From: Escherichia phage A5-4
Sequence record: OP744025
Length of the DNA stretch: 64,000 bases
Strand: one strand, 5' to 3'
The position numbers and the translations under genes were made by a program. The first letter of the stretch is position 1. Every line of letters starts with the position of its first letter. Positions 2,721 to 49,079 of the stretch are shown in pieces. The notes under the pieces are model-generated. The model ran no database searches and had not been told where the DNA came from. It worked only from the letters and a program-made list of their open reading frames with translations.

Positions 2721-2960
2721 ATGCAAACTATTATCACTAAATTTCTTCCTCCTACGAATACCCGTGGCGCTCGCATCAAAGCAAAATGTTGGTTGACAGA
2801 TATCACTATCGCCTATCCGGTAGCCGAGATCAACGAAGCCCATAAACTGGCGGCAGAAGTGTTAATTACAAAATTGAAGATGACAACAGATATTGATTGG
2901 AAAATTGTTGCAAGTGGTGAAACACCGGACGGATCAGGTTATGCATTTATCATCAAATAA
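2721..2960 (+). CDS. hypothetical early protein
   Basis: ORF track; aaggtaaag RBS-like run. Confidence 0.55.
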   Translation: MQTIITKFLPPTNTRGARIKAKCWLTDITIAYPVAEINEAHKLAAEVLITKLKMTTDIDWKIVASGETPDGSGYAFIIK

Positions 2961-5001: not shown

Positions 5002-5056
5002 TTGACACTGTAAGTAATTGTGTTAATATTTTTGTGTAGGGCGGCAATGTTGCCGC
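5002..5056 (+). promoter_or_regulatory. TTGACA box plus stem-loop (gcggcaatgttgccgc) cassette
   Basis: TTGACA 5002-5007; hairpin 5041-5056. Confidence 0.5.
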
Positions 5057-5578: not shown

Positions 5579-5785
5579 ATGACTACTTCAATGATCAGAT
5601 CTTCCGACATTAAAAAGGCTTTATCTGCATTGCGTTATCATCATAGAATGAAAGTAATCAACGATGAGAGCTATCTAGATTCATCGTTAGAAAGCGATAC
5701 GTTGGAAGCCATTTCAAAATTATCTGATTTGCATAAACGCATGACCGAAAGCAACCGATCCGACTTCATAGGGGGCGAAATATGA
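5579..5785 (+). CDS. hypothetical early protein
   Basis: ORF track. Confidence 0.5.
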   Translation: MTTSMIRSSDIKKALSALRYHHRMKVINDESYLDSSLESDTLEAISKLSDLHKRMTESNRSDFIGGEI

Positions 5786-6042
5786 GCATTGCAATGTTAA
5801 TCAATACCGTAGAAGAGGCGAAAGCATTAAAGTTACGTGTTGAACTGATTGATCAGCCAGGTGGAGATCTCCTTGTACAAATCTATCCCCCAAAGGATGA
5901 TTCTGGCGCTTATGATTGGTGCTACTCTGACACGTTCGAACAAGTAGACATTAAAGCAATAACATCATTTATCAATAGGGCTATACTTGAGCAAACGATA
6001 GAACTTAACGGGATGTTAAAAACACCCTGGCACATTTACTGA
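5782..6042 (+). CDS. hypothetical early protein
   Basis: ORF track; 4-nt overlap with the previous ORF. Confidence 0.5.
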   Translation: MSIAMLINTVEEAKALKLRVELIDQPGGDLLVQIYPPKDDSGAYDWCYSDTFEQVDIKAITSFINRAILEQTIELNGMLKTPWHIY

Positions 6043-6053
6043 GTTCGACAAAA

Positions 6054-6079
6054 GGGCTTGACTTGTTCAGCCCTTTTTT
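6054..6079 (+). terminator. intrinsic terminator (gggct...agccc then T6)
   Basis: Hairpin 6054-6073 followed by TTTTTT immediately after the stop of ORF 5782..6042. Confidence 0.6.
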
Positions 6080-6219
6080 GCTATTCTTATCAAACGGGCG
6101 GCACCTGGGAACAGGGGGGAGGTAATCACTGGACGACTCCGCTATATAGTGATAGTAAATAGCTATCAATAATCTCCAAAAATAAAATAAAACCTATCGA
6201 GTCTTTACAATTCTTTCTA

Positions 6220-6265
6220 TTGACACAACAACCGCATTACAGTATTATTTATCTCGTAGGGCAGC
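6220..6265 (+). promoter_or_regulatory. TTGACA promoter-like box with conserved upstream ttacaattct motif
   Basis: ctattgacac at about 6218-6227; same upstream motif recurs at about 7246. Confidence 0.4.
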
Positions 6266-6521
6266 GAAGCAGTGATGTAAAGTAGTTACTCTATGATGTA
6301 AGTTCTGAGAAGTCGAATCCGATAAAGTATCAGAAAGTTTCTAAGTTTTCGAATCGTCCAGATGAAAAAGGCTGGCAAGTGTTGAGAAAGGGCACGTTGA
6401 GTAAGTCCTGAACAGGGGCGCTCCTAGACACCTTCTACTGAGATTGCGATCGAAGTGTTAAACTGTGAGAAACGATAAAGAGTACCAGGAAAGAAAGAAG
6501 TAAAAGAAGTGAAAAAGATTG

Positions 6522-6570
6522 TTGACACGAAGGTAAGTTTTGTACTATTATCTATCTTGTAGGGCAAACT
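6522..6570 (+). promoter_or_regulatory. TTGACA promoter-like box
   Basis: gttgacacg 6521-6529; tactattat -10-like; ORF at 6596. Confidence 0.45.
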
Positions 6571-6595
6571 TCAAGAACATTAAAAAGGGTACAAA

Positions 6596-6871
6596 ATGTT
6601 ACAGCTTAACGCCAAATTAGACAAAGAAATCACTGAGTTTTGGGATATGGTAGTGGCTACAGATGTTGACGGTGTAGCAAGTCCTTACCTCAATAACATT
6701 GAGTATCATAATGTTGCAGCTATGAATGCAGAATACGCAGAAGAAGGCGGCGCGGATAAGTTTGCTAAAAGCAACGGTTTCACTGATGCTAACGACATGA
6801 TGCAATCAGTTTTGTGGCAAGCCCAGGAAGATTTTGAAGAAAAAACTCTTGAATTCGCCAGACGTTCATAA
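6596..6871 (+). CDS. hypothetical protein
   Basis: ORF track; aaaaagggtacaaaATG. Confidence 0.55.
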   Translation: MLQLNAKLDKEITEFWDMVVATDVDGVASPYLNNIEYHNVAAMNAEYAEEGGADKFAKSNGFTDANDMMQSVLWQAQEDFEEKTLEFARRS

Positions 6872-47476: not shown

Positions 47477-48585
47477 TAAATACCTACCCGTTTTAAAGTT
47501 GAGGCTAATGTTGTCTTATCATTTTCTGTACGCTTCATATAAACACACTGGAAAATGACAGAAGCCCACTGACCCGCCGAAAACTTACGATGATTCCCTA
47601 AGTGGTCTGTATATTCAACACCCTCAGGAAACCACTTCTTATACTGATCAATAATAGCTAACCACATACTCTTCTCGTCTGCACAAGGGGAGATGACCTG
47701 GAAAGCCGATGTTTCACCAAAGCGAAGACCCTCGAAGGTTTGATATGGTTTAACGTTATCCGCTGCATCACCAAATAGCATTTGGTAACCGAAGAATTTC
47801 TTACCCCAACCTTTTACCTTACCAGACTCCATCCAGATCTCACCCATAGAATCATCGATCAACCAAAGTTCAGGATGTTTCCATGTACGCTCTGTTGAGT
47901 CACGCATTGTGTTAAACAACAAAGAAGGAACCTGGACCTGATCCTTATCGAATGATGCCACAATATGACTAAACTTTCCAGTCTTCCGATAATTTAAATA
48001 TCCTTTATATCCAAGGATCGATAAATAATCATCTGCCTCAATACCATCCACAATGATCGCACCATACTTCTGCTGAACATATCGACGAGTCTCCCCAAGC
48101 AACAAAGGACGTAAAGTATCTTCACGGTTACCCTTATAGACCTCGGGGGTCGGGAGTGCAAGACGGAAGTTACCACTCCCACCTAAAACACCAAGCCCGT
48201 TTGCTGATCCTACGTGCTCAAGAATAGCATTGATCTTAATCTTCAATAAGTGAAGACAGTTCTCAACTGGTTCTGGAGTTTGCTTTTCAATGATCTCGAA
48301 ATCATCACGAGTCCACGGAGTAAATTCTTTTCCGCGAGCAACCGCTTTTGCTTCCATATTAATGTTTTGGTCTTTTAACCACCCACCAACAACATTCTTT
48401 TGGCGACCCCAGAACTCTGTTCGATTTTTAAACTCTTTCTCTCGGCCTGTTTCTTTGTGCCGAGCAATGATCGTTCGCTTCTCTGCACCTGCCGCAGCCA
48501 CGTATGCTGTCTGGTCAAGATCCAGAGCTACTACAACATTATCTTCTACAATGCCGGACCAATCTTTTACTTTAGGATATCCCAT
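47476..48585 (-). CDS. rnh: RNase H / flap endonuclease (T4 rnh-like 5'-3' exonuclease)
   Basis: VVALDLDQTAYVAAA and GIEADDYLSIL parallel T4 RNase H ICLIDFSQIALSTAL and YEADDHIAVL. Confidence 0.55.
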   Translation of the reverse strand: MGYPKVKDWSGIVEDNVVVALDLDQTAYVAAAGAEKRTIIARHKETGREKEFKNRTEFWGRQKNVVGGWLKDQNINMEAKAVARGKEFTPWTRDDFEIIEKQTPEPVENCLHLLKIKINAILEHVGSANGLGVLGGSGNFRLALPTPEVYKGNREDTLRPLLLGETRRYVQQKYGAIIVDGIEADDYLSILGYKGYLNYRKTGKFSHIVASFDKDQVQVPSLLFNTMRDSTERTWKHPELWLIDDSMGEIWMESGKVKGWGKKFFGYQMLFGDAADNVKPYQTFEGLRFGETSAFQVISPCADEKSMWLAIIDQYKKWFPEGVEYTDHLGNHRKFSAGQWASVIFQCVYMKRTENDKTTLASTLKRVGI

Positions 48586-49079
48586 TATAACTCCTTACCG
48601 TGATTTTCATGAAAGCCGTATTTAATCTCTGCTGCTTTTCTTGCAGCAATTGCATCCTCTTTATCTTCGAAGCGTCCTAGGTATACTCTAACACGATTTA
48701 CAGTTATAGATGCAAGCCATTTTTGCTCTTTTTCCCTCCACATGACCCCTGTGTATCCACTTTTATTACGAGAACTCTTCTTGTTGTTTCTCATATTGTC
48801 TATCTGAGATACCATACGAAGATTACTCATCCTGTTATCCCAAGGTACGTGGTTTATATGGTCAATTACCTTATTGTCCGGTATTTCTCCATTGTTAATT
48901 TCCCACGCTACACGATGACCGAGATGAAGAACGCCATCTAACCATATGTGTATATAACCCCTTTTCTTATTTCTTTTTCCTGCAACGTCACCAGGATAAA
49001 TACCATTATGTCTTCTAACTTTCCAGTACATAACCCCAGTTTCTTGATCGTAAATAAGATAATCATGCCAATTTACCAT
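48585..49079 (-). CDS. HNH homing endonuclease with AP2 DNA-binding domain
   Basis: HNH motif HLGHRVAWE...IDHINHVPWDNRMSNLR; AP2-like GYTGVMWREKEQKWLASITVNRVRVYLGRFEDKEDA. Confidence 0.7.
   Translation of the reverse strand: MVNWHDYLIYDQETGVMYWKVRRHNGIYPGDVAGKRNKKRGYIHIWLDGVLHLGHRVAWEINNGEIPDNKVIDHINHVPWDNRMSNLRMVSQIDNMRNNKKSSRNKSGYTGVMWREKEQKWLASITVNRVRVYLGRFEDKEDAIAARKAAEIKYGFHENHGKEL

Follow-up and report, generated by a model that had tools for sequence, protein, structure and literature searches.

Our comparative analysis shows that a gene-free gap in the early region of the window (the whole 64-kb stretch of DNA analysed here, which comes from a Vequintavirinae-like E. coli myovirus and is 98% identical in this region to phage A7_1) contains, at positions ~6256–6465 of the + strand, the template of a conserved, structured, non-coding RNA of roughly 210 nt that is single-copy and modular. 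The host σ70 RNA polymerase would transcribe it from a promoter at 6220. By these comparisons the RNA is a real, previously undescribed family of modular structured RNAs, and it is present, whole or in part, in Vequintavirinae, Seuratvirus, Drexlerviridae, Autographiviridae, Kuravirus and Salmonella 7-11-like phages. An earlier note on this DNA had suggested that the gap might encode a small non-coding RNA; that suggestion holds in so far as a conserved structured RNA with extensive covariation lies at 6256–6465, but it is not established that the RNA is free-standing rather than the 5′ leader of a longer transcript, as no terminator was found behind it.

Organization of the locus

The upstream operon (gene 5782–6042) is closed by an intrinsic terminator at 6050–6082 of the + strand (hairpin AAAAGGGCU...AGCCCUUUUUU followed by a U6 tail), which the earlier note had placed at 6054–6079. 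Its predicted folding energy is −15.3 kcal/mol (z −3.2), a stability equalled by only 1 of 200 shuffled sequences, and it is kept in all four close relatives and in Vequintaviruses that do not carry the RNA; our pattern scanner passed over it because its loop is longer than 8 nt. It is followed by a spacer (6083–6219, assigned to neither strand) that lies outside the RNA and is weakly constrained, with 83–88% identity to phages UPEC06 and LTH01. The left half of this spacer is homologous to the spacer of the RNA-negative relatives AlexBoehm and phita32, and its sole ORF (6058–6162) is frameshifted in three relatives. Phage phita32 also has an 870-nt unannotated stretch (L014 1380–2250) with coding sequence homologous to the window genes at ~5579–5785, so genes have been missed in that annotation.

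Two σ70-type promoters, both on the + strand and both recognized earlier (at about 6220 and at 6522), flank the RNA and its tail. Promoter 1 (TTGACA-17-TATTAT, 6220–6248, in segment 6220–6255) matches the consensus at 11 of 12 positions, and we infer that transcription from it would start at ~6255–6256; its hexamers are retained in UPEC06 and LTH01 though the spacer between them diverges (69–75% identity). Promoter 2 (TTGACA-18-TATTAT, 6522–6551), which also matches at 11 of 12 positions, occupies 6522–6595 together with the leader of the gene at 6596–6871, which begins at the ATG at 6596. Promoter 1 is one of five copies in the window, where none is expected by chance, of a cassette TTGACAC..TAnTAT..GTAGGG. 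These copies, at 5002, 5501, 6220, 6522 and 7790 on the + strand, also have the initial transcribed sequence in common, and the early region is an array of such promoter-gene cassettes with few terminators.

Between the RNA and promoter 2 lies an A/G-rich, C-poor tail (6466–6521, + strand), a low-constraint linker that doubles as the upstream flank of promoter 2. It is 78–82% identical within the lineage (UPEC06 and LTH01), contains indels, and carries 2.3 units of a 9-nt tandem repeat, AAAGAAGTA, at 6494–6514 (found with TRF); the length of the tail differs among close relatives by units like this repeat. The purine-rich stretch described in the earlier note is thus present, but the enrichment is moderate, the A+G fraction being 0.61–0.63 across 6300–6599 against 0.48–0.60 in the surroundings, and it is strongest (0.78) after 6466, in the tail. 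This tail, which had drawn attention, is the least constrained part.

Absence of a conserved open reading frame

The earlier observation that the first ATG is followed at once by a stop is correct (the ATG at 6275–6277 directly abuts the TAA at 6278–6280), and its statement that the gap has no plausible ORF holds for both strands in the sense that none is conserved. There are no + strand ORFs of 20 or more amino acids with a start codon in 6286–6539. The minus strand has ORFs of 30, 33 and 47 amino acids, whose frame and extent are not conserved; two of these three carry hypothetical-protein annotation in relatives. In GenBank, minus-strand hypothetical proteins overlie the RNA and tail in A7_1 (A71_258, L001 3225–3368) and in UPEC06 (L002 2086–2178 and 2224–2361). 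The annotated ORFs are broken in A73 and LTH01 and lie in a different frame in other lineages, so what several GenBank records annotate across the RNA element on this strand is probably spurious. A conserved short ORF recognizable by homology was looked for on both strands and was not found. Similarity between lineages is visible in all six reading frames, and there are indels inside the core.

Architecture of the RNA

The RNA is built of two tandem modules, each with the plan helix-GAA-hairpin-AAAGUA-helix, a core containing helices P3–P6, and a closing hairpin P7; all are on the + strand. Module M1 (P1, 6258–6292), delimited with RNAalifold and pair counts, has an outer helix, the GAA, a hairpin GCA-GUGA-UGU (6269–6278) and the AAAGUA, and a 19-mer within it, GAAGCAGUGAUGCAAAGUA, is identical in UPEC06 and LTH01, the Salmonella 7-11 group and Kuravirus. 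Module M2 (P2, 6303–6335) has the outer helix UUCUGA/UCAGAA, the GAA, an inner hairpin GUCG-AAUC-CGAU (6312–6323) and the AAAGUA; all ten of its ten pairs covary over six phage groups, with as many as four pair types at a position. The GAA, the AAAGUA and the linker GUAGUAAG are invariant across these six groups.

An invariant GAAUCGU and then P3 occupy 6351–6376, P3 being a CCAG/CUGG hairpin with the 10-nt loop AUGAAAAAGG. Its A-U pair has become G-C independently in Seuratvirus and Rtp, and in Autographiviridae the stem is CUAG/CUAG. The core continues over 6377–6436 with J3/4 (AAGUGUUG), P4 (6385–6391 with 6431–6436, AG(A)AAGG/CCUUCU), an invariant internal loop of 7+7 nt, P5 (6399–6402 with 6420–6423, GAGU/GCUC) and P6 (6405–6419, GUCCU-GAACA-GGGGC). 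P5 and P6 covary. The pairs of P4 are invariant among the core-bearing phages, but this helix is nevertheless supported, because its bulge differs among them (A, C or AC) and because the Autographiviridae relatives keep P4 and cap it with a loop of 8–9 nt that replaces the entire P5-P6 extension. All members have GAANA as the loop of P6, its fourth base being variable, and the stem of this hairpin is weaker in the Drexlerviridae (4 bp plus a bulge). P7 (6437–6456) is weak in the window lineage, where it reads ACU-GA-GAU-UGCG-AUC-GA-AGU; in Seuratvirus, Drexlerviridae and the metagenome contig L030 the same position is taken by a 7-bp hairpin with a 1-nt bulge on its 3′ strand, and five different sequence solutions realise P7 altogether.

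Evidence for structure and selection

When the window lineage is aligned with the Seuratvirus copies, RNAalifold predicts 39 pairs in 7 helices, 11 of which are changed on both sides. In this alignment 98.3% of the cells are paired, compared with 36–48% in slid controls, and the covariation score is reached by none of 500 shuffles. With the Drexlerviridae and L030 added, giving 10 distinct sequences over the core and P7, 92.3% are paired, as against 37–53% when slid. For the 5′ domain, which can be followed through six phage groups, 16 pairs are predicted, 11 of them compensatory; here 96.3% are paired (24–38% when slid) and the covariation score is 0.776, as against 0.085 at most. We assign the RNA to the + strand because it has many G-U pairs and because this strand folds 11 kcal/mol better than the minus strand. 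By folding energy the RNA does not stand out from shuffled sequence (z +1.2 to +1.8), and the case for structure is therefore comparative only.

Purifying selection within the window lineage, judged from segment-wise identity, peaks on the same interval. Relative to UPEC06 and LTH01, 6256–6465 is 96–100% identical segment by segment and about 98% identical overall, the few substitutions inside the RNA being structure-neutral, and the flanking genes fall below it at 90–96% identity.

Distribution among phages

BLAST with the gap as query matched four close myovirus relatives, and a core of ~88 nt (6351–6438) was found at 85–92% identity in unannotated intergenic DNA of other phages, namely three Seuratviruses (SA80RD, SLUR75 and WildeMaa/Bas23) and four Drexlerviridae (Rtp, ZL19, PH1062 and BUCT-XGG-1). 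The core is present in about 12 of 50,697 phage records and is patchy within each family. A covariance model built from it, R1, scores 112 bits at the window core and finds no other copy in the window; the complete genomes of Rtp and WildeMaa likewise have just one each. Exact-anchor scans that covered IMG/VR, JGI metagenomes and GTDB genomes returned Rtp itself, one true new member (L030, a divergent core that scores 97.5 bits with R1) and otherwise chance matches, which were filtered out with R1; three IMG/VR matches were discarded as protein-coding false positives.

The Drexlerviridae copies have one GAA/AAAGUA module only. A weak match opened a path to the Salmonella 7-11-like phages (Grimontviridae) and thence to a subset of Kuravirus that includes Bas89, and Klebsiella and "Ralstonia" Autographiviridae are further carriers of M1 and M2. 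In Grimontviridae, Kuravirus and Autographiviridae alike, the two modules lie in unannotated DNA just downstream of a promoter-like site. The Autographiviridae carry a minimal core as well (30–37 bits with R1), and R1 detected no P3–P6 core in Kuravirus or Grimontviridae. Modules of this core-less kind are seen in Salmonella phage SE131 (L118 ~960–1090), pSal-SNUABM-01 (L010 1480–1585), Kuravirus MN03 (L119 ~895–985) and Bas89 (L122 ~400–480), and a motif UAAGGACUC downstream of the modules is common to the Kuravirus and Klebsiella phages. E. coli K-12 supports the growth of two carriers from the BASEL collection, Bas23 WildeMaa and Bas89 KarlSchell.

Searches for a host origin or mimicry gave no match in 5,426 E. 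coli genomes, and none was found among 72,556 plasmids. At the gathering threshold the 4227 models of Rfam 15 matched only tRNAs in the window, permissive scans of the window, WildeMaa and Rtp copies gave noise of at most 21 bits, and we found no description of the RNA element in the literature. The sixth of the tRNA-like Rfam matches in the window (61271–61349, + strand) scores 35.8 bits, just above its gathering score, and is not called by ARAGORN; it adjoins the tRNA cluster at 61.3–63.1 kb.

Exchange of the RNA as a cassette

Every copy of the RNA lies just downstream of a σ70-type or promoter-like site and has the same direction as the genes downstream of it. In WildeMaa and Rtp it stands first in operons running out of the main divergent control region; pattern scans of these two phages and of the window revealed no intrinsic terminator behind it. 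The downstream genes are unrelated between lineages, and none of the neighbouring proteins or of those displaced by the RNA has a recognised function. Comparison of carriers with their RNA-negative relatives shows that the RNA has been exchanged horizontally as a cassette that begins at the start site of a resident early promoter. For example, KurtStettler, a Seuratvirus without the RNA, uses the same resident promoter for a 95-amino-acid gene; in SA80RD the switch to the RNA comes right at the start site, and homology between the two phages returns ~13 nt before the next gene. Similarly, RNA-negative Vequintaviruses have the terminator and spacer, then a single promoter and then the gene; the window has that type of promoter twice, bracketing the RNA and tail, and the Drexlerviridae have a similar flanking repeat.

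A BLAST comparison of the proteins of the window (64 kb), WildeMaa and Rtp brought out a single one common to all three, an HNH homing endonuclease, a ubiquitous type of protein that we rejected as a co-travelling partner of the RNA. The window copy (48585–49079, minus strand) is 40–47% identical to those of Rtp and WildeMaa, and WildeMaa has two copies within 1–2 kb of the RNA; the endonuclease is a possible vehicle for lateral transfer of the RNA. Another resemblance between these genomes is an 84-amino-acid ORF at 2721–2960 (+ strand) of the window that is 35% identical (E 2e-8) to Seuratvirus bas23_0076, a gene that neighbours the RNA in WildeMaa. A motif AATAGCAC-N-TTTG stands directly upstream of the −35 region of the RNA promoter in Drexlerviridae and in WildeMaa/SLUR75 (Rtp L003 60–110, WildeMaa L008 1350–1372). 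In the Drexlerviridae this motif is repeated downstream of the RNA, and multiple TGCAATA repeats are present farther upstream of the RNA promoter; the motif and these repeats may be regulator sites of the divergent control region.

Possible roles of the RNA

The RNA probably aids viral takeover of host transcription or defences early in infection. Our tentative first choice is that it would be a cis-acting, promoter-proximal leader that acts on host transcription elongation. The nascent RNA would fold while leaving the polymerase, its invariant loops would engage the elongating host RNA polymerase and/or host elongation factors, and the early region, with its short and poorly translated ORFs, would then resist pausing and Rho-dependent or intrinsic termination. 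The principle would be like that of phage HK022 put, λ nut and the rrn leaders, with an unrelated RNA architecture. Such a leader is favoured by the promoter-proximal and co-directional placement in every lineage, by the lack of a terminator behind the RNA in the window, WildeMaa and Rtp, and by its position at the head of operons in the latter two phages. Since the downstream genes differ between lineages, any action of the RNA must be gene-agnostic, and since the three-genome comparison gave no phage partner protein, host factors common to all these phages must be what it relies on.

Further support comes from the Autographiviridae relatives, in which a perfect boxA, GCUCUUUAACAA, lies ~45 nt downstream of the minimal core (12 of 12 positions, a score reached by 0 of 2000 shuffles). 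This rrn-type boxA (GCTCTTTAACAA) is in the early leader of the Klebsiella phage RCIP0053 (L121 593–604) and of Reminis (L123 581–592), and it fits the published consensus GYTCTTTAANA (PMC5725501). At least that leader would therefore be an antitermination leader, and the boxA suggests Nus-factor antitermination in early operons of virulent podoviruses. On the other hand, there is no boxA within two mismatches near the RNA of the window: its stretch CGCUCCUAGACA matches the consensus (CGCUCUUA / GYUCUUUAANA) at only 8 of 12 positions (as scored in LTH01, which has the same sequence there), and scores of 8–9 of 12 are no better than those of shuffles. Other observations also weigh against a cis-acting leader. 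In the window and the Drexlerviridae a second promoter follows the RNA and precedes the first downstream gene, which is thus independent of the RNA; in Seuratvirus the RNA sits in the slot of a small protein gene and so behaves like a gene cassette; presence in about 12 of 50,697 records is a patchiness that one would sooner expect of accessory genes than of a core device for transcription; and beyond the want of a significant boxA the window copy has no relationship to put and a fold energy of z +1.2.

Nearly as likely, in our estimation, is a stand-alone, trans-acting early RNA that would bind a macromolecule of the host (a defence-system sensor or nuclease, say, or a protein that binds RNA) and sequester or redirect it, and whose 3′ end would come from processing or from protection by P7. 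The swap with a 95-amino-acid early protein gene under the same resident promoter in Seuratvirus is what would be expected of such an RNA, as are its position between duplicates of the resident promoter in the window and Drexlerviridae, where the downstream gene keeps a promoter of its own, and its patchy, accessory-like transfer among unrelated E. coli phages. The long invariant unpaired stretches suggest recognition by a conserved partner, and promoter-gene cassettes without terminators are the norm in this region. However, the scans of the window, WildeMaa and Rtp gave no terminator or defined 3′ end behind the RNA, its direction always matches that of the downstream genes, the 5,426 E. coli genomes contain no homologue for it to mimic, no partner emerged from the three-genome protein comparison, and the boxA adjoining the RNA of the distant relatives points to control of transcription.

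The remaining explanations are much weaker. It is unlikely that the RNA is a ligand-sensing riboswitch or a protein-operated translational or attenuation leader for the downstream early genes. Its aptamer-like architecture with invariant internal loops would suit such a role, in Seuratvirus it directly precedes the first gene, and three CCGG segments that follow the core of WildeMaa and SLUR75 might pair into alternative hairpins, but these hairpins are not conserved in SA80RD, the window or the Drexlerviridae. Moreover, the downstream genes are of unknown function and unrelated between lineages, a separate promoter intervenes in the window and Drexlerviridae, and no Rfam riboswitch matches. 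We give slightly less credence still to the idea that it is a small RNA which depends on Hfq for base-pairing, or that its A/G-rich (ARN)n tail makes it a sponge for Hfq. The tail is indeed rich in A-R-N triplets, part of its sequence is common to the window and Drexlerviridae, and L030 has 10 consecutive triplets, a run matched by 10 of 2000 shuffles; yet the ARN content of the window is explained by composition alone (448 of 2000 shuffles), the Seuratvirus copies have no ARN tract, and the scans of the window, WildeMaa and Rtp found no U-tailed terminator after the RNA. The tail is also the least conserved part, and a role for it would leave the conserved structured body unexplained. A DNA-level element (a replication origin, an R-loop primer site or a protein-binding array) in place of a functional RNA is very improbable: a promoter firing into purine-rich sequence could favour R-loops, and in the siphoviruses the element sits in divergent control regions, but its helices are kept by compensatory changes and by G-U pairs that exist only on the + strand, and it is common to phages with unrelated replication machinery. 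Least probable of all is a small protein gene on either strand or the decayed remnant of one (a deleted gene was the other explanation in the earlier note), since the minus-strand hypothetical proteins annotated in relatives are its sole encouragement, and no ORF, the annotated ones and that of the spacer included, keeps frame, start or extent, the similarity across lineages extends to all six frames, the core contains indels, and the segment, under strong purifying selection, surpasses genuine neighbouring genes in conservation and has been exchanged between unrelated phage families.

The usual picture of the early region of a virulent coliphage is a series of genes for tiny orphan proteins; here one of the cassettes carries an RNA instead. 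We suggest with some doubt that it may represent a new class of RNA at the 5′ end of early transcripts in at least six groups of virulent Enterobacteriaceae phages, one that would either reprogram elongation without a phage protein or be an RNA-only effector of counter-defence or takeover. An RNA so conserved, mobile and dependent on host factors would point to a general, RNA-level means of host takeover. Were RNA polymerase its target, it would be one of only two known types of protein-independent antiterminator, a put-like solution structurally unrelated to the first, and it would explain how early operons of short ORFs escape Rho; were it trans-acting, it would count among the rare takeover or counter-defence effectors made of RNA.

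Comparison with known RNA elements

The modules M1 and M2 contain what may be a variant of a familiar motif. The sarcin-ricin/loop E (bulged-G) signature is an AGUA opposite a GAA in an internal loop between two helices, and in M1 and M2 an invariant GAA likewise faces an invariant AGUA between covarying helices; neither the GAA nor the AAGUA varies among 10 sequences drawn from six phage groups, and the helices that flank them covary. Compared with the ribosomal sarcin-ricin hairpin, the motif of M1 and M2 is flipped; its loop is asymmetric with extra A residues. Resemblances of parts of the RNA to 4.5S/SRP RNA and to loop B of the hairpin ribozyme we take to be short purine-rich coincidences; they have no model support. 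A type III antitoxin RNA of the ToxI kind was also rejected: such RNAs have tandem direct repeats of ~34–40 nt and a toxin endoribonuclease gene as neighbour, and here there is only the 9-nt repeat, 2.3 times, in the tail, and the adjoining genes match no known family.

P6 resembles λ boxB in having a 5-bp stem and a GAANA pentaloop. With this boxB-shaped hairpin, whose pentaloop is GNRA-like, and with the perfect downstream boxA of the Autographiviridae relatives, the RNA is like λ nut, but M1, M2, P3 and P4 have no counterpart in nut or in the rrn leaders. The perfect boxA of an rrn-type leader is found only in the distant relatives RCIP0053 and Reminis and not in the window. As to an N-like protein with an arginine-rich motif, the BLAST comparison of the window (64 kb), WildeMaa and Rtp, which could miss small, divergent proteins of this kind, gave nothing in common beyond the HNH endonuclease.

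The put RNAs of phage HK022 are structured phage RNAs of irregular stem-loops with conserved bulges that need no phage protein; they bind the zinc-binding domain of the RNA polymerase β′ subunit and suppress pausing and termination in cis (PMC9378689). Like putL and putR, the RNA described here lies just downstream of an early σ70 promoter on the strand of its operon and is indifferent to the genes downstream. It differs in being about three times larger and modular, and in occurring in virulent rather than lambdoid phages. We rejected homology between the two, as putL taken from HK022 shares nothing with the element, R1 scores in HK022 are at most 10.5 bits and the put sites are unmatched. 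The RNA can also be set beside the large orphan structured RNAs of phages, such as GOLLD, ROOL and HEARO. It is far smaller than these, has no Rfam match, is always promoter-proximal and belongs to virulent phages of Enterobacteriaceae, but, like them and like phage small RNAs, it was discovered by comparative analysis and is a conserved, covarying, phage-borne orphan RNA.
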